DNA of 63,156 bases, filler included, from Chiloscyllium plagiosum (Eukaryota): NCBI RefSeq assembly GCF_004010195.1. It is 5 parts of 5 records of this genome, joined end to end, with 100 filler letters (N's around TTAATTAATTAA, not from the genome) between each part and the next. Parts side by side here need not be neighbours in the genome. Positions count along the whole stretch, not along the records: positions 58,368 to 63,156 come from NW_025196403.1; 4 more parts are not named here. The stretch is one strand, 5' to 3'. The position numbers and the translations under genes are program-made. The notes under the pieces are model-generated. The model was not told where the DNA came from and ran no database searches. It saw only the letters and a program-made list of their open reading frames with translations. Every line of letters begins with the position of its first letter. The first letter of the stretch is position 1. Below are positions 2,585 through 63,156 of the stretch, in pieces.

Positions 2585-3700
2585 GGGCCAACATCCCAAT
2601 AGCTTTCCTGATTCCCTGCTGCTCCCATGCGCTAACTTTCTGTGTTTTGGGCACTTTGTTTTTTGCAGCTTTCTCATTTTTTCTCCATTTAAATAATATT
2701 CTGTTGTTTTATTCTCCCTTCCAAAAGATACAACTTCACATTTTCCCACATGAAACTTCATCTGCCAGCCTTTCCTCACTGACCTCACCAATAAATATCT
2801 CTCTATTAACTGTTTGTATCATTCTTGTAACTTGCCTTTCCCCCTATTTTTGTGCCATCTGTAATTTTGGCTACAGTACATTCACTTGCTTCTTCCACGT
2901 CATTGATAAATATTGTAAACAGTTGTGGCCCCAGCACTGATCCCTGTGGAATGCCACTGGTCACAGGTCACCAACCTGAAAAGGAATCCCCTTATCCCCA
3001 TTCCGTGTTTCCTTCCTATTTGCCAATTCTCTGTCCATGCCGATATACTACCTTGAACTCCATGAGCTCTTATGATTTAATTTTCTGTGAGGTACATGTT
3101 GAACACCTTCTGGAAGTCCAATCACAAACATCTACTGGATCCCCTCTACCCACTCTGGTGGGTCTTTCATGATAAACTCTAACAAATTAGTCAGCCTTAA
3201 TATTTTGTTTATTATTACTGTTCCTTAATGATTGATTCTAAAATTTTTCAAACAACAAATGTTTGTGAAATTAGCCTCTGGTTCCTCCCATTTTAGTCAA
3301 TTAATGATAAGAATACATTCCTATCCACTCTATCTCTGCCCCTCACAATCTTATACCTCTCTACCAGGTTCCCTCTCAACCTTCACTGCTCCAAAGAAAA
3401 TAACCCCAGCCAGACCAATCTTTCCTCATAGCTCAGACCCTCCAGGCCAGGCAGCATCCTGGAAAATCTCCTCTGCACCCTCTGGAGTACAATCACACCT
3501 TTCCCATTATGTGGGGACCAGAACTACACACAATACTCCAGTTGTGGCCTAACCAATGTTTTATGCAGTTCCAGCATACCCCTCCCCGCTCTTGTATTCT
3601 AATAAAGGCAAGTATCCCATTTGTCTTCTGAGCCACATATCTCCCTGTCCTGTTACCTTTAGAGATTTGTGGATATACTCACTGAGTTCCCCCAATCTTC
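2585..3700 (-). mobile_element. CR1 LINE fragments
   Basis: WQMKFHVGKCEVVSFGR and [13 protein letters not shown] motifs on the minus strand. Confidence 0.75.
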
Positions 3701-4124
3701 AGTACAATTTTGAGTCCTCACTCTCTGCCATAAACTTTAGCCTTTTACCTTCTCCAAACCTGTCCATCCCTTGACAATCAGGGTTCTCTGGGCTTGTTGG
3801 TCCCACCCTTCATTTTTACAGTAACATGTACTCGCATTATTTCCTTTCGGAAAGACTCCCACTGCTCTGATATAGATTTTCCTACAAGGATCTGCTCCCA
3901 GTCCACTTCAGCTAGCTCCTGCTTCATCATTGGCTCTGGCACCACATGGAGGCCAGACCAGATAAGGATGGCAGATTTCCATCCGTAAAGGACATTGGTG
4001 AACCTGATGGGTTTTTATGACGTTTGTCAATGATTTCATGGTCATCACTGGATTTATCGCATCTTACACCTGAAAAAGATCCTTTGGTCCATTATCAAGC
4101 AGTTGCCTCCACTCATCCCACTGT

Positions 4125-16815: not shown

Positions 16816-17793
16816 GACAGGTCCTGGTCATCACGTTTTGGGAAGGATGTGATTGTATTTGAGAGGGGACCTGATAGAGGGAGATAAGAATATTTGGGGC
16901 AGTGATAGGGTGGGTGGGAAGGTACTTTTTACAAGAGGAAGGGACTCAATAACCAGGGACAGGGATTGAAGGTAACATAGACATGGACACGGAGAAACTA
17001 GGAGCAGGAGAAGGCCATTCGGCCCTTTGAGTCTGCTCTGTCATTCAGTATGATCATGGCTGACCCTCCATCTCAATGCCATATTCCTGCTTTCTCTCCA
17101 TTCCCTTTATGCTGTTAAAATGCAAACAATTATATCTCTCTTTTTCTTGAATATACTCAGTTCCTTGTCATCCAAAGCTGTCTGTGATAGAGAATTCAAT
17201 ACATTGACCACCCTTTGAGTGAAGAAATGTTTCCTTGTCTCAGTCCTAAATAGTCTACATATCCCCCTGAGACTGTGTCCCCTGGTTCCAGACTCCCCAA
17301 CAGGAGAAACCTCCTCCCTGCCCAGCCCTGTTAGAATTTTATGCATTTCAATCAGATTCCCTCTCATCCTTCTAAACTCGAGTGAGTCCAGGTCCAGTCG
17401 AGTTGCAGAGTAAGAGGAGAATTGAGGAGAAATGTTCTCACCCAGAGGGTGGTGGGAGTCTGGAACTCACTGCCTGAAAGGCTGGTTGACTCACAAACTC
17501 TCGTAACACTGGAGCAGTGTTTAGATATTCCCTTGTGTTGCTGTAGGCTCCAGGGTAATGGGCCAAGAGCTGGAGGATGGGATTAGTGTCATCAGATCGC
17601 TGTTTACCAGCACAGACGCAATGGGCCAAATGGCCTCATTCAGTGCTGTTCACATCAATCACTCTCTGAGACAGAGAGAAAGAGAGAGAGAGAGAGAGAA
17701 GAGGAAGTGTGCGGGGCTGACGTGGCTCTCTCTGCCTGATGCCATTTACATACTGAGGAACATCCAGTCAGACTCTCACATCTGACCCCTCAG

Positions 17794-18092
17794 GTATCAG
17801 TGGGGACATCACCATGACCCAGTCTCCCCCAGTGCTGTCAGTGGGACTGGGCCAGACTGCAACCATCACCTGTACGGCCAGTAAAAGCATTAGTAGCTAC
17901 CTTGCTTGGTACCAGCAGCGAGAAGGTCAGAAACCCTCTCCCCTGATCTATGCTGCAACAAATCGATTCACAGGAGTCTCCAATCGATTCACCGGCAGTG
18001 GATCAGGGACCAGTTTCACCCTGAAAATCAGCAACGTTCAGAATGAGGATGTCGCTGACTATTACTGTCAGCAGCATTACAGCTACCCTCGA
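17794..18092 (+). CDS. IGKV: Ig kappa (shark NS4/type III) light-chain V exon (L-part2 + V region), germline unrearranged, open frame
   Basis: Acceptor CCCTCAG|GT ATC AGT GGG; translation [27 protein letters not shown]...[10 protein letters not shown]...[15 protein letters not shown]...[15 protein letters not shown] with both Cys and Trp; followed by a perfect 12-RSS. Confidence 0.96.
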
Positions 18093-18120
18093 CACAGTGA
18101 CACAGAGCCATACAAAAACC
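18093..18120 (+). promoter_or_regulatory. 12-spacer recombination signal sequence of V-kappa
   Basis: CACAGTG-acacagagccat(12)-ACAAAAACC, perfect consensus. Confidence 0.98.
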
Positions 18121-18527
18121 TTAAAGCACACAGAATCACCTCCTGTACTGACACATCTCACAGTTATATAAAATGCATAATAATGGACAAACAGTCCCAC
18201 CGCCTGAACTGACATATCCCACAGTTAGATCTAAATGAAACTGAACACATTACCCAATGCTGGGATTGTCACTGTCTGCTACACACTCCAGTCCCTGTGG
18301 TGTCCACTGCTCACTGAAGGCCTCAAGTTTCCCCCTTACACTCCATGGCCACTTGTGAAGAGCAGTTGCAAGATTTAACAACGAAAAATAAAGTTCACAA
18401 CCCAGAGGCAGAGACAGAAAGACATATGAATGAGGGAGAGACTGATAGGGGCACAAAGAGGGTGAGAGTGACTGACAGACTGGGAGATAGGGAGAGGGTG
18501 AGAGTGACAGAGGGAAACAGAGAGCTG

Positions 18528-18566
18528 AGGTTTTGTACAGCTTCTGCACTGGGAGCTCTCACTGTG
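18528..18566 (-). promoter_or_regulatory. 23-spacer RSS of J-kappa
   Basis: AGGTTTTGT-23 nt-CACTGTG immediately 5' of J. Confidence 0.95.
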
Positions 18567-18601
18567 GCTTACATTCGGTAAAGGAACCAAGCTCAGACTG
18601 A
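18567..18601 (+). CDS. IGKJ: Ig kappa J segment
   Basis: LTFGKGTKLRL (FGxG motif), phase-1 donor A|GTAAGT; 474 bp from the V end, typical shark V-J cluster; missed by the ORF track. Confidence 0.96.
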
Positions 18602-19739
18602 GTAAGTAAACCTCAATTCTCCGTTATTAAGCTTTCAACACCGAAACTTTCTCAATCACAAATGTTGAATTGTTGAAGGTGTTAGTGGGGAGCTGCAGTG
18701 AATGAAATGGTTGATTGAGGAGCACTGTGTCTAACAGGGTGTCCAGCTGTATTTCTTTAGTTCCATTGCCCCCTTTAAGCAGCAAGATATGTCAGTAAGT
18801 TTTACTCACCGTGTGGAGGAGCTCTGTCCATTTGCAGCCTGTGGTCCCATTCCTGCAGCATGGAGTGAAATCAGTGAGTAGCCTCCTGCCAGTCTCAGTG
18901 TGACGGACACGGGCAGAGTTTGATGTGAGCTCTGGCTCCCTGTCCCAGTCTCTGATCTCACTGACCTCAGCAGCAGCAGCAGCAGCAGCACAGTGAGACA
19001 CCGAGCTCCCACCTCCCCCAGCTTTAACTCTGCTCAATCACACAATCTCAGAATTGTTACAGTGCACAAGGAGGCCATTCTGTCCATCCTGTCTGGACCA
19101 GCTCTCTAAATGAGCAATTGACTGAGTGTCATTCGCCTGCCTTCTCCCTGTCACCCTGCACATTGTTCCTTTTCAAATAACAGTCTCATTCTCTTTGGAA
19201 TATTTCAATTGAAGCTGCCTCCACCACACTCTCAGGCAGTGCAGTCCACACCTTAACCACTCACTGGCTGAAAATGTTTTTCCCTCATTTCACTTTTGCT
19301 TCTTTTACCAATTATTTTCAATCCATGGCCTCTCCCTCTCAATTCTTTCTCAGGTGGGAACATTTTCTCCTGGTTTACTCTGTTCAGACCCCTCCTGATT
19401 TTGAATTTCTCGATCAAATCTGCTCTCTGCCTTCTCTTCTCTGAGAAAGACAGTCCCAACTTCTCCAGTCTATCTTCATAACTAACATTCCTCATCCTGG
19501 ATGGGTCAGATAGCCCACTCCTGCTCCTATTTCTAATGTTCTTATTATCTTATCTTCCAATGTGAGAGACACACATCAGATTTCCACTTAACACTCTGTG
19601 GCTGTACCTTCCCAGTCTTATTCCCAACACTCCGTGCAGTCCCATCCTTACACAGTGACCCTGATTTAGAATTTATTACTCTCTCTCCCTCACTCCTGAA
19701 ACTGGTAAGAAGTTCTATTCCTTATTCTGGTGCTATCTA

Positions 19740-29354: not shown

Positions 29355-29657
29355 ACACCATCTCCCCCACGCTTTATGGCCTGGCCTCCTCCTGTCAGGA
29401 GCACAACACCGGTTCTGCGAGCTTTGGTTGTTTGGCGATGGACTATTCCCCTGACGTCCCCAAGGTAATCTGGAAGAAAGGAGGGGAGCTAATCACGACT
29501 GGATTGAAGATTTACCCATCAGTGAGAAACAAGAAGGGAACCTACACCCTGAGCAGCCAGGTAACCCTGCCAGAGTCAGCGGTAGGTTGCCCCAGCAAAA
29601 TCTACTGTGAGGTTCAACACAGCGGGTCACACAAGAGCAAAGAAATGCCATGTCCAG
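29355..29657 (+). CDS. IGHM: IgM heavy chain CH1 exon (open frame; the same scaffold has a damaged CH2)
   Basis: TGTACAG| acceptor, [12 protein letters not shown]...[10 protein letters not shown]...WKK...[16 protein letters not shown]...YCEVQHSG...MPCP, donor G|GTATGT; 303 nt, phase 1/1; matches shark C-mu1. Confidence 0.93.
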
Positions 29658-29729
29658 GTATGTGTTGTGGGAACTGAGATAAACAGAGCATCTGGGATTA
29701 ATATGAAGAAGACATTATTTATAACCGTT

Positions 29730-32720
29730 TTCACAGAATCACCTTGTACAACACAGGAAAAAGGCTCTTTGATCCATCCAGTTCACGCCTATCAATAACA
29801 GCCAGTCTCATGTGCCAGCACATGATCCATTGCCTTGTGTGGCTTGCCTTTGCAAGGATGCATCTCAATACTTCATACTTATTATGAGGGGCTCAGTCTC
29901 TACATGACTTATATGTGCTGAGCTCCAGGCTAACACCACCCTCTGTTTGATTTTGTTTTCCCCTGAGATCCACTTGGAACCTCCTGGCCTTACCTTCATC
30001 CTGTGCCCCTGAGGCATTAAGGGGAAAGGTTTCATCTAGTTTACCGTGTCTATGCCTAAAATAATTCTAGACATCAGGATAATCTTCTCCCTAATTCTCC
30101 TCTGCTCCAAGGAAAACCCCTGTCTATCTAATCTTGTTTCATAACTAAAACCCTCCAACCCAGGCAAGATCCTGGCAAATCTCATCAATACTGCCTTCTG
30201 TGTAATCACATTCCTCCGGTAACACGCACACAACTCTTCAATATGGCCTAACCAGTGTTCTATTAAGTTCCAGTATCATCTCCCTACTCTTCATTGTCAA
30301 TATCTAGGCTAATAAAAGCAAATATCCTCCCACTTTCTTAGCCTCTTTATCCAGACGACACAGAATTATAGGGGATCGGTGGGTACATGCACCAAAGATC
30401 CTCAGGCCTTTCCAGGGTTCCACCATTGAAAGCGTCATACCTCACAGATTCTTCTGCCGAATTACATCACCTTACATTTATCCAGAATAATTTCCATTTG
30501 CAACTTCTCTTCACATACAAACAACCCTTTTATATCCTCCTGCAATCTAAAACCTTTATGCTCATGAGTTACCAACATGACAGTTTTCATTCCATCTGTG
30601 AATTCACTGGTTAATCCTCCTAAATTTGAGTCTCAATCATTGGTATGTAAGAGAAATAGCAAGGAAATCAACACCAATCGCTACAGAACACCAGGAGACA
30701 TAGATTTCCAGTCACGCAGACACCCGATGACTACTATCCCCTGCTCCCATCACTCAGCCAGTTCTAGATCCAATCTGTCAAATTAACTCGGATCCCATTG
30801 GCTCTGATTATTGCTATCATCTGGACATCGAGTTATCTCTATGAAAACTACTATCAAATTGTTACACATTACTTCCTCTCAATAAAACCGTGCTGAAAAT
30901 TGTTGATTTATCTTCCAAATGAAGACTAATTTCACTTCTCAATAGTTTCCTTACCACTGAGACTAGCTTGACAGATCTGTGTTTTCATTATTTATCCCTT
31001 CCTTCGTCCTGCATAACAGTGCANNNNNNNNNNNNNNNNNNNNNNNNNNNNNNNNNNNNNNNNNNNNNNNNNNNNNNNNNNNNNNNNNNNNNNNNNNNNN
31101 NNNNNNNNNNNNNNNNNNNNNNNNNNNNNNNNNNNNNNNNNNNNNNNNNNNNNNNNNNNNNNNNNNNNNNNNNNNNNNNNNNNNNNNNNNNNNNNNNNNN
31201 NNNNNNNNNNNNNNNNNNNNNNNNNNNNNNNNNNNNNNNNNNNNNNNNNNNNNNNNNNNNNNNNNNNNNNNNNNNNNNNNNNNNNNNNNNNNNNNNNNNN
31301 NNNNNNNNNNNNNNNNNNNNNNNNNNNNNNNNNNNNNNNNNNNNNNNNNNNNNNNNNNNNNNNNNNNNNNNNNNNNNNNNNNNNNNNNNNNNNNNNNNNN
31401 NNNNNNNNNNNNNNNNNNNNNNNNNNNNNNNNNNNNNNNNNNNNNNNNNNNNNNNNNNNNNNNNNNNNNNNNNNNNNNNNNNNNNNNNNNNNNNNNNNNN
31501 NNNNNNNNNNNNNNNNNNNNNNNNNNNNNNNNNNNNNNNNNNNNNNNNNNNNNNNNNNNNNNNNNNNNNNNNNNNNNNNNNNNNNNNNNNNNNNNNNNNN
31601 NNNNNNNNNNNNNNNNNNNNNNNNNNNNNNNNNNNNNNNNNNNNNNNNNNNNNNNNNNNNNNNATGTTGACTGCTATTATTTTCTCCTGGGCCCTTTTGC
31701 TCTTCTAACTCCTTTGTCTTTCGAACTCCCCCTTGCACGTTCTGTACTCCATATTGTTTTGAGATTTCAGTATAGCCCGGAAGCCTCCCTTGTTTCTCTT
31801 TATCTCCCCCTCCATGCCCTTTGGTGTCCAGAGCCCGCTGCATTCTTGGTCCCACGCAGTGGCTTCCTGGGAAATGTCCTCCCTGTGATTTTCCTATCTC
31901 TTTCTTAAATGTGTCACACTGCTCTGACTCAGATTTACCAATAAGTGTCAGCTTCCAGTCCACTCTGGTCAAGTCATTACCTGATCTTACTAAAATTGTC
32001 CTTCCCCTTTTCAGAACTTTGGGCCAATTTCTATTCCTTTGCAGTACAATCTGAAATCCAACTGATTTACGATCACTGTCTGCAAAGTGCTCCACCATTG
32101 ATGTTTTACCCACTGGGTCGACTTCATTCCCTAAAGTTAAGTTCAGGTTCACCCCTCTCTTGCAAGGTCTGGATTAAAATTCTCTGTATTACACACATAC
32201 TTTGTTAAAATATTCTCCTGGGGCATTTTCAGAATTATGCTCCCTCTGAATTTTTGACACAATGAATATCCAAGCCTATGCTGAGGAAGTTAAAAACCTC
32301 TTTTCTCATTCCCCTATTTAATTGACATTTCTCTGAAATTTGCCCATGTATTTCTACTTGGTCTTTTGGACCTATAGTAAGGTCTATAGTGCTCTCCCAG
32401 TAGTCATTTTTGCTGTATTTTGGTTTTGAAGTACTGTCCATTTGCCTTTGTTCGAGGAGGTATCCATGGTTTCATTTCTCTTTACAGCCTAAAATACTCT
32501 TGTCAGAATTGCGACAGAAACAACATTCTGTACCCCCGCCCCCATCCTTTTCCATCTTTCCCTGTCTCGCCTGAAGGCACTAAATCCTGGAATATTGAAT
32601 AGCCACTCCCGCCCTGCTCTCAATATGTCTCCGTGATAGCAACCGCATCATTTCCTCATTTATGCCGGTAATTCATCTGCCTTGTTCATCAGACTCTGTC
32701 ATTAAAACGAATACCATCTA
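29730..32720 (-). mobile_element. Old CR1 LINE fragments filling the CH1-CH2 intron (contains a gap)
   Basis: FARILPGLEGFSYETRLDR, LNLTLGNE...EHFADSDR. Confidence 0.7.
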
Positions 32721-32966
32721 ACGTTGCATCTCCCTTCTGATTTAACCGGCCTATAGTTTCTATGCCTCCTTGAGTCCCTTGCTGTGTCCTATAATTTTAG
32801 CCTTTCACATTATCCTGCTTTTCTTTCTGTGTGGACCCCAGCTTCTCCAGCACTCTGCATAATTATGATTCTTGTATCCATTAACCACAAGAAACCTTGC
32901 TATATGAGAACTGATTGTATTTGTTCTGAAATTCGTCAGATAATTTATGCGATGTGTTTCCGAAAG

Positions 32967-33263
32967 ATCTAGGTATTCTCCAACCAACTCTTCTCCTAAC
33001 TGTGAGCTCCAGTGAAGAATCGCAAGCAGCAAGTTTGCAACCGTCGTCTGTTCAATCATCGATTTCCATCCGAAGTCAATCTCCGTGATTTGGTTGAAAA
33101 ATGGCCGACGCTTGGATTCTGGCTTCTTCACGTCTCCCGTGTGTGAGGCGAACGGGAACTTCTCGGTGACGAGTCGGCTTATGGTCCCTTATGGTGAATG
33201 GTTCAACAGCGCAGTCTATACCTGCCAGGTCACTCATGGAGAGAACATTCACCGCACTCCAGG
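32967..33263 (+). pseudogene. IGHM: IgM CH2 exon with frameshifts
   Basis: [12 protein letters not shown] in one frame, then [28 protein letters not shown]...[14 protein letters not shown]...[11 protein letters not shown] in another (1 nt missing at ~33019); the upstream frame hits TGA at 33086; second shift near 33249 before donor |GTAAGA; alternative in-frame acceptor at 32973. Confidence 0.88.
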
Positions 33264-37931: not shown

Positions 37932-37991
37932 TTATTGACATAAATTAACAGTGTCCATCAGTGCAAGTGAAATGTTTACAAAAATGTTCAC
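37932..37991 (-). pseudogene. IGHM: IgM secretory tailpiece, frameshifted
   Basis: Ancestral frame [16 protein letters not shown] (N-glycan site, penultimate Cys) is out of frame with CH4, which reads [15 protein letters not shown]; AATAAA overlaps the old stop (37936-37931). Confidence 0.9.
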
Positions 37992-38321
37992 CACTGGATT
38001 TGTCGACAGTTCTGTTGATGATCTTGAACGGAATCGCTTCATGTCCCACCACACAGGAGTAAGAAGCACTGCTGGCCCACTCCTCCGCTGTAATGGATAA
38101 CAGGCTGTACATGAAGAAGGAGGTGTTGTTGCTCTCCACCATCACCTCGGTGTTCTTGTAGTTACTGGGATTCACCGGCTTGTCATTGTTTGTCCACTTG
38201 ACGAAGATCTCTCGGGGGAAGAAACCGCTCACTAAACAGGTGAGGGAGAGAAACCTCTTAGCGGAGATTTCTTCTGTTGGTGGCAGGAGCACAGACACTG
38301 ATGGCTCCAGTGCATTAATCA
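37992..38321 (-). CDS. IGHM: IgM CH4 exon (to the internal donor used for the membrane form); open frame within a disabled gene
   Basis: TTTGCAG| acceptor; [10 protein letters not shown]...[20 protein letters not shown]...YKNTEVM...[29 protein letters not shown]; donor G|GTGAAC. Confidence 0.94.
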
Positions 38322-38779
38322 CTGCAAAATATTTGAGACAAAGATAAATCAACTATAAAAATCCAGAATCAATATCACGATTTCACTAAATATTAAAATA
38401 TGCCGTTTTTAATTTGGGATTTATTCACGTTCAATATCTAAGAGGAGCAAAGTGGTAGACACTATGTTCAATAAAAGATGTAAAAAGTTTAATTTGAAAC
38501 TCGCATCCATGTTTCCAGCCCACAACGAGTACATTCTGTCCATGTGTCATTGCTGATGGTGACGTCACAACCCAGATTCCTTCCCACCTTATCTGATTTA
38601 ATCGGAATAGAATAGCCTTTGGTCTGTCTCTTTCTTAATCAGATACTTAGATTTTCTGCCATCAAATGCATTATTTATGCTCCCAGCAGTGTTTGCTCAT
38701 TACCAATCAAAGCTTGCCATTGATGTACCTGGATCTCAATTACACTTGGGATTCTTTGTGCTTTAATATCACCGCTCAC

Positions 38780-39085
38780 CTTTCTTCTTGTGGATGGAGT
38801 CTCTCAGCGGAGTCGGTAGATTCTGATGGTACACCACACATTAAAAAGTAACGCCACTCAGCCAGGCATCAGTCGAAATATCTAATTTGCTGATCACACT
38901 GTCGGGATTCTGTCCAGACAGGTCAGCAATCTCTGATTTCAGAGGCTTCTTTTCCTTTATCCAGGTGACGTTGACTCCAGAAGGAAGATTGGACACAACA
39001 CAGCTTAACGTCACCGTCGCCTCCAGCAAGACCTGTTCTACTGGTGGCGGGAGGATTTTAACCGTGTAATCGTGGTGCACAGTAT
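38780..39085 (-). pseudogene. IGHM: IgM CH3 exon with premature stop
   Basis: [25 protein letters not shown]...WLSGVTF-TAA(38843-38841)-CVVYHQNLPTPLRDSIHKKK, donor G|GTGAGC; 306 nt; 5' acceptor weak and approximate. Confidence 0.92.
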
Positions 39086-45900: not shown

Positions 45901-46231
45901 CTACACATATTCTGATCTCCCGATGCTCTTGTTGAGGGGTGAGAGGAGGGTCACATGGGTGAGGGCACAGGAGAAACGAGCGTTGGACTCCCAGTCAGAC
46001 CCAGAGAGAGTCAGCAGACTGCTGACACTGTAGGTGCTGTCCGAAGCTCGCAGATAGTTGCTGGTCTGAACACCGTCCGAAATGACTGCACCATCATTCT
46101 TCCACTGCACCTCCAGCTCATCGGGATAGAAGTGATTGGCAAAGCACACCAGGGTGGCAGTGCCCTTGGCATTGACCTGCACCGGGGAGGGGGGGGCAGC
46201 AGGGTGAGCTTGGGCTGAGAGTTGTCACGGC
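45901..46231 (-). pseudogene. IGKC: Ig kappa constant exon with frameshift and lost interchain Cys
   Basis: CTTTCAG|GC CGT GAC (phase matches J-kappa); RDNSQPKLTLLPP then a C8 run (46196-46189) shifts the frame by 2 before SPVQVNAKGTATLVCFANHFYPDELEVQWKNDG...FSCALTH; ends RSEYV* where C is expected. Confidence 0.88.
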
Positions 46232-58367: not shown

Positions 58368-59517
58368 GACACAACTTAAAATTCAGACCATTGCACAGAA
58401 CATAGAGGAGCGCTCACAACATTGGAAATGATTTTGTTTGATAAAAGAATCCATCGTAGACTTTCTCAGACCAATTCGTGTCAACAAACTTTTTTTTTGT
58501 GTGTGGGGTAGCGCACGAAATGTTACTTTAATCCGATTTGCACTTAAGAAATTGTTTGAAAACGTGTATCACAGTAGATACGCGAGTAAATTTTACAAAT
58601 CATTGATCAAAGGGGACAATCTTTTTTGGATTCGAGGAAGATCCACAGTGATATTTTGTAAATGTTTGGAGCTGGAATTGTTTTCAATTTTTGACCCAGA
58701 CATTGGTGTATTTTCCGTATGGTGGGGGATTTCAACAAGAGGGAACATGTTTTTCCAATGAGTGGAGAAAAATTTTAAAAAGGATATCAGAGACACAGAG
58801 AATGATTTGTGTGTGGGATGGTCTGGCGGTGGATACTTACAACCTTTAGAAGACATTTGGATAAGTAAATGAATATCAAATGTTTGGATGGGTATGGGCC
58901 AAGTACACACAGGTGGGATTAGTTTAGTTTGGGATTAGGACTGGCATGGACTGGGGGGACCGAGGGGTCTGTTTCCATGCTGTATCACTACATGACTCTG
59001 TGACTATTGATCAATTTTTCTCAATACTAAACAGTGCTGTAGTGATCCTTGAATGAACTGTTGATGTTAAGGTTGTGTCTGAGACTCTGCGAATATTTCC
59101 TTCAATGAGAGGAGTGACTAGTTCTCCAAGTTACACAACTGAAAATAAACTTTTCTCCAGCATTGCTGCTGAGTNNNNNNNNNNNNNNNNNNNNNNNNNN
59201 NNNNNNNNNNNNNNNNNNNNNNNNNNNNNNNNNNNNNNNNNNNNNNNNNNNNNNNNNNNNNNNNNNNNNNNNNNNNNNNNNNNNNNNNNNNNNNNNNNNN
59301 NNNNNNNNNNNNNNNNNNNNNNNNNNNNNNNNNNNNNNNNNNNNNNNNNNNNNNNNNNNNNNNNNNNNNNNNNNNNNNNNNNNNNNNNNNNNNNNNNNNN
59401 NNNNNNNNNNNNNNNNNNNNNNNNNNNNNNNNNNNNNNNNNNNNNNNNNNNNNNNNNNNNNNNNNNNNNNNNNNNNNNNNNNNNNNNNNNNNNNNNNNNN
59501 NNNNNNNNNNNNNNNNN

Positions 59518-59880
59518 ATCATGGTTGATCATTCCTAATCAGTATCCTGTCTTATCTCCATAACCCTTGATTCCACTATCTTTGAGAGCTCTATCCAACT
59601 CCTTCTTAAATTAATCCAGAGAGTGGGCCTCCACTGCTCCCTGTGGCAGAGCATTCCACACAGCCACCACTCTCTGGGTGAAGAAGTTTCTCCTCATCTC
59701 TGTCCTAAATGGTCTACCCCGTATTTTTAACCTGTGTCCTCTGGTTCGGCACACACCCATCAGTGGAAATATGTTTCCTACTGCCAGAGTGTCCAATCCT
59801 TTCATAATCTTATACGTCTCAAGCAGATCCCCTCTCAATCTTCGAAACTCAAGGGTATACAAGCCCAGTCGCTTCAGTCT
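59518..59880 (-). mobile_element. CR1 LINE 3' end
   Basis: LEFRRLRGDLLETYKIMKGLD, RRNFFTQRVV..WNALP. Confidence 0.85.
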
Positions 59881-60342
59881 TCCAGGGCCCTTTATACATG
59901 GTTAACACTGTGTCGTGTAACAGCGAAGTTTTGCTGATTTTTATGAGTTAACTGCCCTGTCAGAGCTAACAGTGAGCAGAGAAATGTACTGTTTATAACA
60001 TACATTCGTGGTAATTATTACTGTAATACTCTCTAACTTAACCAAACATTCCTGATGTACCCAGACTGTTACGTGCAATGGTTTAGCCATTGAGGATTAA
60101 AAAAAAACTTATAGACTGTTTTGTTCTAGTTCATTAGATGCTCTTTCAAAAGTTTACCTAGGTGTTATGTATCACTGCGGACTCACATTTTGTTTCTCAG
60201 GCACACAACTTGCCTTTACTGTGCATTTTAGTGTCGGAGCAATTTGAAAAATAAGATGCAGGGAGAGACATTCTGCAATGTAAGGAGGTGCTTCTAATCT
60301 CCGGGTCCAAACTGTTTAGTGACATACACTCACATTCTGAAC

Positions 60343-60790
60343 ATAATCACTTTAGACATGTTCCATATTAGGTTGCCGAAACTGAATTTAGAAACGCAGA
60401 TTAGAAATGATATGTTATTTTGTAATATGAGAGAGACTTTGAGTGACAGCAAAAATAAAGTCATTCATTTTGTTGGCTAATAATATTATTGAAGTTCTTT
60501 TTAGCTTTATCTGCTTGTGGTGGAATGTAGGATTAAAGGGAGTTAACTTCTAATTGAATATTATAAATATAATCACTTTGGACACGCTCTGTATTCAGTT
60601 GTCTAAATTGAATTCTGAAATGTTTCATATGAATTACATGTTATTTTGTAGTGCGACAGAGACTTGCTGTATCCAGGGAAGAAAAGCTCAACTGTTTTAT
60701 TAACTAGTAATATGTTTGAACTTTAATTTTACTTTTATCTGCTTGTGAATGAATGTCGAAATAAAGGGAGCTAACTTCCAGTTGAATTTG
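60343..60790. repeat. Diverged tandem duplication, ~226-bp period
   Basis: ataatcacttt.gaca, tgttattttgta, tttatctgcttgtg, taaagggag.taacttc each occur twice in register. Confidence 0.8.
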
Positions 60791-61037
60791 TTATATTAAA
60801 CAAAATACATGCAACTATCATGTGAAACAGACCTGAAGCTACTCAAATTTACTTCCAAATAAGCTATTCAGCAAAACCAATATCCCAAGATGTGTATGTG
60901 TCCATGTTTAAGCAGAACCTCATGTTAAGACATGACCCCATGTGTTCAGGCTGTGCAAGCTGACACCAGGATCCAGTCTGAGCCTCCAGCAGGACACCAA
61001 CATGCGGAAGCTGTAAGCCTGTCCCTTCCGATGGCCA

Positions 61038-61043
61038 TATAAA
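61038..61043 (+). promoter_or_regulatory. TATA box of the VH promoter
   Basis: TATAAA about 90 nt upstream of the leader ATG; ETS-like CGGAAG at ~61005. Confidence 0.75.
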
Positions 61044-61130
61044 TCCTGGGCACTGGACCGTAATTCAACACTCCTGGGTCGGCTCTGTTTAGAAAGATCT
61101 TGACAGAACCGTTTCCCACAAGTTATCAGA

Positions 61131-61179
61131 ATGATTGTGTCGACACTTTTTCTCAGTTTGTTACTGACTTTCTTATCAT
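61131..61179 (+). CDS. IGHV: IgH leader exon (L-part1)
   Basis: MIVSTLFLSLLLTFLS + phase-1 donor T|GTGAGT; 127-nt intron to the V exon. Confidence 0.93.
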
Positions 61180-61306
61180 GTGAGTATTTTTTGTTCAAGT
61201 CTCTCTTTGTGACTGTCTCAATGTTAGTCTACGGCAGGAATGTAAAAGACTCAGACATCATTTCACCAACATTAATGCTCATGGTTTGTTTGTTTTCTTT
61301 TTAAAG

Positions 61307-61611
61307 GTGTCCAGTCGGAGGTTGTTTTGACCCAGCCAGAGGCAGAGACTGGCCGTCCCGCAGGCAGCCTGAAACTGACCTGTAAAACCAGCGGGTTCAA
61401 TCTTGGCAGCTACTACATGAGCTGGGTCCGACAGGTTCCCGGACAGGGTCTGGAGTGGCTGCTGTCCTACTATGATTCATCGGACAATAGCTATGCGCCA
61501 GCGATTAAGGGTCGATTTACTGCGTCCAAAGACACTTCAAACAACATTTTCGCGTTGGACATGGGGAACCTGAAGATCGAAGACACCGCCATCTATTACT
61601 GTGCAAGAGAC
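61307..61611 (+). CDS. IGHV: IgM-type heavy-chain V exon, germline unrearranged, open frame
   Basis: TTAAAG| acceptor; [52 protein letters not shown]...[13 protein letters not shown]...[11 protein letters not shown]. Confidence 0.96.
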
Positions 61612-61650
61612 CACAGCGAGAGGAACCAGGGCTGGACCCGTTCAAAAACA
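61612..61650 (+). promoter_or_regulatory. 23-spacer RSS of VH
   Basis: CACAGCG-23 nt-TCAAAAACA. Confidence 0.92.
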
Positions 61651-62134
61651 GCTCGAGGGAACATTTTGTCAATACCATTATAAACTGATGGTCAGTACGA
61701 GTTTTAAATGCAATTATACCACGGATTGATTTTTGTTCAGACTGATTATAGACTTCAGTTAAGGCTCAGCAAATAGTTACAGTGGGGATGATGGAGTCAG
61801 TTACTCGGTGTATCTCTTTTTTTGATCAGATGGGCATTCTGTGTGGCTGGGTTACTTGAAACACCTAATGTTTCTTAATCAGTCAGCTATAAATAATGTT
61901 TAATACCAGTGACATCCTGACTGTGAGTTTTATTATCAACAACAAAGGCTAAGAATTCAAAGATGTTCGAGATATTACTAAACATGATTAAAATATGCTA
62001 AAATATCATGATTCACTTCTTGAATATATGTTCTTACCCTGATTATATTTTCTCATTTATTTTGTTAATTTTGTTGATGACAAGCAGGTTAGAAACTGTC
62101 ATAAAAATTTTCTTGCGGCGCTATATTGCATTCT

Positions 62135-62390
62135 GATGATTAGATTCTGAGTTTGGTTTACTTGATTCTGTTGAATTGAGTTGATTGGATTTTGGCTTTG
62201 TTTTAGTTGATTCGGTTTGAACTGTGTTGATTGGATTCTAGACTTTGTTTTTACTTGGTTTTTTGAATTGTGTTGATTGGCTTTTGTTTTATTTATTCTG
62301 TTGAATTGAATTGTTTGGATTCTCATTATGTTTCATTCAAATCTGTTGAATTGAGTTGATTGGATTCTTATTCAGTTTGTGAAATTGATC
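62135..62390. repeat. Degenerate T/G-rich short tandem repeat
   Basis: Recurrent ctgttgaattga / ttgattggatt units. Confidence 0.75.
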
Positions 62391-62808
62391 AGCGTTTTCA
62401 TGTTTTCTGTAATCGGTGTTTTCTTTCTGGTGAGGAGATTGACTCTCTGGATTACTTTTCATTACCAATATTTGTGAAGTTCTTTTGTTTTTCATGAATC
62501 ATTTCTGCTTTTGTTAAACTTGTATGACACATTTTTCTCTGCTTGATTGACAACATTACATCCATTTGAAACGGTCTGAAAACAACTTAAGGCAGGAACC
62601 CGGAAGTGTGAGAAATGAAAAAAAAAGAGTTTTTAATGCATTGACTTTTAACAAAAAAACTCAGTTCTAATTGTAAACTAACTGAATTTTGTTTTGATTA
62701 GCCTCATTCAAAATAAAATTTGGGACTAAAATCTGAAACTGCAGAATTGATCAGATTATGTAATTGAAACTACCTTAAAATTATAATGTGGTAATATTTG
62801 TCCATTCA

Positions 62809-63082
62809 GTAATTTTGTTTTGACAATGAAGTGATTAATCAAATATGCCGTCAACCGCTCTACTGTGCGCTGCACAAGATTGTCATGATCAGGAAGGGTG
62901 TACAGGTTGGAAATAAATTGAACTGTTGCCAGAAACGTTACAGCTGTAATTTTGTTTTGACCATGAAGTGATTAATCAAATATGCCGTCAACCGCTCTAC
63001 TGTGCACTTCACAAGATTGTCACGATCAAGAAGGGTGTGCAGGTTGGAAATAAATTGAACTGTTGCCAGAAACGTTACAGCT
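62809..63082. repeat. Tandem duplication 2 x 137 bp
   Basis: gtaattttgttttgac...gaaacgttacagct twice, about 6 differences. Confidence 0.93.
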
Positions 63083-63156
63083 TTAAGTGTTAAGTCCCTT
63101 CACAAATATGGCTGCTGTTATGATTGTTATTTCTATTCAATTTAATCATTAGTTTG

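Follow-up and report, generated by a model that had tools for sequence, protein, structure and literature searches.

An IgM minilocus of Chiloscyllium plagiosum that has probably lost its D1-D2-J block through a germline deletion

Main finding

The V segment described here probably belongs to a copy of an ordinary shark IgM minilocus that lacks D1, D2 and J, likely as the result of one germline deletion, and that is predicted to be a pseudogene, unable to assemble a heavy chain of its own. The original prediction preferred a stand-alone VH donor for TCR-delta or a neighbouring cluster, a reading for which no support was found, since the V has on either side IgM-cluster DNA, from which the D1-D2-J block is missing. 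Its fallback, a dying cluster, agrees with the full IgM-cluster frame around the V. As a dying cluster the copy matters little: it contributes one more type of lesion to what is known of birth and death among IgM genes in sharks, and it illustrates that V counts overstate the number of working IgM clusters. A title-level look at the literature found no D-D-J-deleted shark IgM cluster, which does not establish absence from print.

Sequence setting

The window, the whole stretch of DNA that was analysed (63,156 nucleotides), is a pack of five stretches, of which the V-bearing one, 58368-63156, comes last. This stretch is all of contig G000:C82998 (NW_025196403.1), which is 4,789 bp long, unplaced and interrupted in its upstream region by a 343-N gap at 59175-59517. 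Over its full length the contig aligns with ordinary IgM miniloci from the same genome; the one exception is 61721/61722. Because the upstream 2.7 kb is IgM-cluster DNA, the V has not moved on its own. RSS-like sites were scored by mismatch counts against shuffles, in place of RIC scores. The features are collected in Table 1.

Table 1. Features of the V-bearing stretch, in window coordinates
Feature	Position	Strand	Basis or remark
Upstream and promoter region of IgM minilocus	58368..61130	+	83-97% identical to upstream DNA of other IgM clusters
TATAAA	61038-61043	+	motif scan
Leader exon	61131..61179	+	ATG, open, GT donor
IgM-type VH exon	61307..61611	+	open; mature domain from 61318; Pfam V-set E 8.6e-16
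23-bp-spacer RSS, usual form in IgM family	61612..61650	+	CACAGCG-23-TCAAAAACA
Start of V-D1 spacer, first 71 bp	61651..61721	+	stop TAA at 61681-61683; GT donor at 61691
Deletion junction	61721..61722		1,261 bp absent relative to L031
5' part of J-Cmu1 intron	61722..63156	+	98.6% identical to sister C74473, 84-96% to other clusters
Weak 12-RSS-like intron motif	61898..61925	-	no D or 3' RSS after it
Second 12-RSS-like intron motif, in low-complexity DNA	62199..62226	-	1+2 mismatches; 7.8% of shuffles give one
137-bp tandem duplication	62810..63083	+	units 62810-62946 and 62947-63083

Elsewhere in the pack, 17790-18620 holds a light-chain V and J, both open and unrearranged, the V with a 12-RSS at 18093 and the J with a 23-RSS at 18566; we take them to be kappa-like. 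Further stretches hold Cmu1-Cmu2 (29366-33255), Cmu3, with a stop, and Cmu4 (37935-39071), and a light-chain-like C exon (45913-46194); these are found on other contigs than the V and need not belong with it.

The V segment, its leader and its RSS

The TATA box, leader, open VH and 23-RSS of the original prediction stand where it placed them, as judged by motif scan, reading frame, the V-set match and the RSSs of paralogues. The VH exon holds both cysteines and the FR2 tryptophan, and its amino acid identity reaches 94% to V segments of paralogous IgM clusters, 86-89% to Chiloscyllium punctatum models and 73-80% to nurse shark and Triakis IgM. In a protein search, the closest named proteins were shark IgM heavy chains, with Chiloscyllium nearest at 86-89%. 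Among the best 150 of 453 candidates, placed relatives of at least 62% identity are found on C8, C11, C37, C4, C26, C33 and C16, with none on C44. The heptamer and nonamer are identical in the unrearranged paralogue L031 and in other unrearranged copies, and V(D)J joints occur at the matching place of the L031 RSS in runs X2 and X5. The homologue of the leader intron in L031 is spliced out in RNA-like runs.

Private letters of the window copy stand at 61466, 61497, 61674 and 61679. The exon carries two private changes, and V exons remained open in 77-90% of trials after 2-5 random changes, so that an open V needs no selection as its explanation; these trials gave no sign of selection maintaining it. 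In the remnant of the V-D1 spacer there is a read-through stop (TAA, 61681-61683), at which an unrearranged transcript of this copy would terminate, and a GT donor at 61691 whose homologue is used by paralogues in sterile transcripts.

In the sterile transcript of unrearranged IgM clusters, the splice donor is a GT about 40 bp 3' of the V nonamer and the acceptor lies shortly ahead of the J RSS (L031:2847-3943); this splice is seen in L031 in contigs of X1, X2 and X5 and in four raw reads of X23. A second sterile splice in L031 starts in the D1-D2 spacer and runs from 3305 to 3944. Of the first splice, the window copy retains the donor, at 61691, and has lost the acceptor.

The missing D1-D2-J block

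The claim that no D or J is found in the 1,545 bp 3' of the V is confirmed, the distance being counted from the start of the heptamer, and no WGxG J motif occurs in any frame of 58368-63156. Alignment to an intact IgM V-D-D-J region, proposed with the original prediction as a means of finding the breakpoint, located it at 61721/61722. The missing 1,261 bp comprise, in L031 terms, the rest of the V-D1 spacer, D1, D2, J and the first 105 bp of the intron. On the left, the break lies 71 bp 3' of the V nonamer and 311 bp short of the D1 heptamer; on the right, it lies 106 bp beyond the J splice donor. Between the two matching pieces, intact copies hold D1, D2 and J with their RSSs, in a block of 1,261 bp in unrearranged L031, 1,256 bp in L033 and L034, and 1,231 bp in L046.

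A genome search with 60900-63156 returned at least 61 matches (best 40 of 152 candidates scored), in which the paralogues match as two pieces that meet at 61721/61722. The same breakpoint emerges against all 14 paralogue loci compared, on the left side in 9, on the right side in 13 and on both in 8. Among the best 40 of 68 candidates, only G000:C82998 spans the junction. Gap-free spans from the leader intron to the J-C intron are available for 22 of 47 loci; 21 of these keep J, and the window copy alone is without it. By our reading of the block map, the 21 divide into 8 unrearranged spans and 13 with at least one D or J join. In a functional IgM cluster, D1, D2 and J would lie no more than about 2 kb from the V, and a germline-joined cluster made by RAG would have its junction at RSS borders with J kept; the window copy shows neither arrangement. 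The collinearity of its flanks with clusters that bear D1-D2-J and Cmu, together with the IgM-type VH, leader and 23-RSS, nevertheless marks it as an IgM minilocus by descent.

The junction itself is blunt, with no microhomology and no RSS or heptamer at either end. The missing block has no CAC at its start and no GTG at its end, and the nearest segment borders are 311 and 106 bp away. The break ends have no heptamer, and RAG cutting at cryptic sites there is rejected for this reason. Both cuts fall in WRCY/RGYW motifs, yet so do 34% and 25% of nearby positions, and an origin at AID hotspots was therefore given no weight.

The J-Cmu1 intron and its motifs

Everything after 61722 is J-Cmu1 intron, and D or J segments are therefore not expected just past the scaffold end, a location that is rejected. 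The distance from J to Cmu1 is about 10.1 kb in the L031 cluster, and L034 likewise has Cmu1 downstream, so that the contig ends about 8 kb short of the expected Cmu1. The J of the IgM family is spliced to Cmu1 in runs X2 and X5, where loose ends match the Cmu1 start of P0003.

The decayed RSS proposed at 61896-61925 is best read as a minus-strand CACAGTC with a 12-bp spacer and did not hold up, being intron sequence common to intact clusters and at chance level. Homologous sequence is present in the J-Cmu intron of 33 of 33 paralogue rows among the matches listed, and a site as weak arises in 46% of 500 shuffles; on both grounds the motif is rejected as a relic D. A weak score alone does not exclude cutting, because the working D1 5' RSS of the IgM family has itself only 4 of 9 nonamer matches. 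The frames after the motif reach a stop within 8-24 codons. The second motif, at 62199-62226, scores better and was previously unmentioned. It too is intron sequence common to paralogues; among 47 loci, its spacer measures 12 bp in 6 others and 11 bp in 8. All three frames after it contain stops, and no D or J follows.

The duplication noted in the original prediction is borne out as a 137-bp tandem pair whose units differ at 7 of 137 positions. Both units have two rare letters in common with the sister contig C74473, and among the best 40 of 46 candidates the boundary between them is spanned by G000:C82998 only.

Kinship and the likely origin of the deletion

On either side of the deletion, the flank groups with C74473 (FastTree support 0.96 on the left, 0.93 and 0.97 on the right), with which the window copy has rare letters in common, 6 on the left and 3+5 on the right. 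This kinship fits a deletion inside one cluster lineage. Identity to C74473 is uneven, at 96.2% on the left and 98.6% on the right, and C74473 has its own 532-N gap. The V-containing segment 61022-61721, at which C74473 has a gap, groups weakly with L053 (0.84).

The deletion is probably real. It may have arisen from a germline double-strand break repaired by blunt end joining, and the V may still look intact because the event was recent. An aborted germ-cell RAG cut with long resection would be possible, because parts of PMC2193156 describe, for light chains, RAG activity in the germ cells of sharks and the sister C74473 carries a D2-J join; it finds no support at these ends. The window copy would be expected to yield no heavy chain. 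The most that might happen to its V is cutting to a cryptic 12-RSS in the intron, and the resulting product, without a J, would run into a stop within 8-24 codons.

D-J loss is a recurrent type of decay among the IgM clusters of this genome, given the lesions of L120, L121 and L125, of L134 and of four further blunt cases. L120, L121 and L125, on C74861, C21966 and C55886, have one identical deletion junction, from mid-V to the J-Cmu intron, in three contigs; they differ from each other at 10-13 of about 700 letters, and their deletion was therefore copied after it arose. L134 (G000:C8, about 69.48 Mb) is a J-less IgM cluster that keeps an open V, the 23-RSS and D1, with D2-J missing and a short repeat at the join, followed by deep J-C intron. 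Among the four blunt lesions, the one in L049 ends exactly on the D1 3' heptamer. Twenty further, mostly more distant loci comprise 12 that keep J, 4 that are uninformative and 4 without J, the last being L120, L121, L125 and L134.

Blunt lesions at L049:1487-1488, L050:3241-3242 and L036:8024-8025 lie at or a few bases from an RSS heptamer and look like aberrant germline RAG events. At L035:2950-3890, a V-RSS-to-J segment is inverted in an IgM cluster that also has a D2-J join.

Alternative explanations

An unlikely alternative is an assembly or library artefact: the real cluster would have D1-D2-J, and the contig would wrongly link two pieces of it, or pieces from two sister copies. Short, unplaced and with a gap, the contig belongs to a multi-copy family and has a second oddity unique to it in the 137-bp duplication, while the uneven identity to C74473 and the gap in the latter leave room for an origin from two clusters. 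No contig or read bridges the junction in any of four runs (11 records in X6, 7 in X8, 3 in X14 and 16 raw reads in X23), all loose ends at 61721 continue as undeleted sequence, and the joint is absent among the 15 of 36 L031 joints listed. The power of these runs is, however, low: the private letters at 61674 and 61679 are absent from all three contig sets, as are other paralogues' variants, and X23 reads have the paralogue letter in 9 of 10 cases at 61674 and 9 of 9 at 61679. A run search listed no RNA run for the window copy, the best share of its words being 0.44, with 73% of the words occurring in paralogues. Against a misjoin, the two junction sides have no letters in common, which a walk through overlapping words would presumably not create unaided; the right side starts in sequence identical to several paralogues rather than at a natural contig end; both flanks are sister to C74473; and three separate contigs carry a comparable deletion that takes J away.

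If the deletion is real, the J-less V might still be used occasionally, its 23-RSS being paired by RAG with a D that bears a 12-RSS, in a neighbouring IgM cluster or at TCR-delta, and this we regard as improbable. Promoter, leader, V and RSS are intact while D1 is gone, L134 provides a second J-less copy with an open V and is placed on a chromosome, the IgM clusters of C8 lie about 17-45 kb apart in one orientation, and rearrangement of IgM/W VH to TCR-delta D is described in parts of PMC12227049 and PMC6795676. In the nurse shark, however, according to passages of PMC2435157, rearrangement stays within the minilocus, with interlocus joining in 1 of 58 thymic clones; moreover, the window V shows no sign of being kept by selection and its contig is not placed near any D. 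Were such a V used in rearrangement, it would offer a testable step between the minilocus arrangement of sharks and the arrangement with multiple V segments that other vertebrates have. The broader proposal that deletions which strip D and J and spare promoter, V and RSS, as in the window copy and L134, create free V donors for the next cluster or TCR-delta is a long shot; if true, a minilocus V would have been caught in the course of becoming a translocon-style or TCR-associated V.

That the V is a dedicated solitary VH inside the TCR alpha/delta locus is scarcely credible: the genome does have such segments, with 8 full-length Ig-like V (7 with a 23-RSS found by scan) among TCR V at C44:14.2-14.35 Mb, but these form their own clade (99/99), which excludes the window V, are 44-61% identical to it and belong to a different family, while its nearest rows are IgM cluster V, its flanks have no homology across 400 kb of C44 around these segments, and no V above 61% identity is found on C44 among the best 150 of 453 candidates. 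Membership in that clade would mark a TCR-delta-associated Ig-like V, and the window V falls outside it; beyond its nearest rows, the IgM part of the V tree is without resolution. In protein searches, a weak test, none of the proteins found was named as an IgV-TCR-delta chimera.

The region C44:14.09-14.49 Mb is a TCR-type V array with 27 RSS matches at 22-23 bp spacing, in which no J motif and no Cmu match were found. It was named TCR from its V sequences and from a source-named TCR-alpha-like model that matches two array segments at 98-99%. A Pfam PF09291 search of the genome for a TCR constant region gave no match, and C-delta was not located. Within the array, at 14.20-14.35 Mb (L068-L083), TCR V are interspersed with at least 8 solitary Ig-like V of full length, two of which have the opposite orientation.

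Comparison with known systems

The window copy, read as a decaying IgM cluster, resembles the elasmobranch IgM minilocus VH-D1-D2-JH-Cmu, as set out in parts of PMC2435157 and PMC5192425, in its leader, VH, 23-RSS, start of the V-D1 spacer and J-Cmu intron, and differs from it in being without D1, D2 and J and in a contig that ends before Cmu. Pseudogene and partly joined clusters are counted as normal in sharks in passages of PMC5192425 and PMC4279169, and the window copy is like such pseudogene and partly germline-joined clusters (also described, for light chains, in parts of PMC2193156) in carrying a germline lesion within a family of many copies. In germline joins the ends fall at RSSs and J is retained; the window deletion takes J away, its ends lying 311 bp short of the D1 heptamer and 106 bp beyond J. 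Finally, the Ig-like V segments of the shark TCR alpha/delta locus, presumably the TAILV segments, resemble the window V as Ig-like V with a 23-RSS and no D or J of their own, but they are of another V family, lie among TCR V segments and, unlike the window V, are without IgM flanks.
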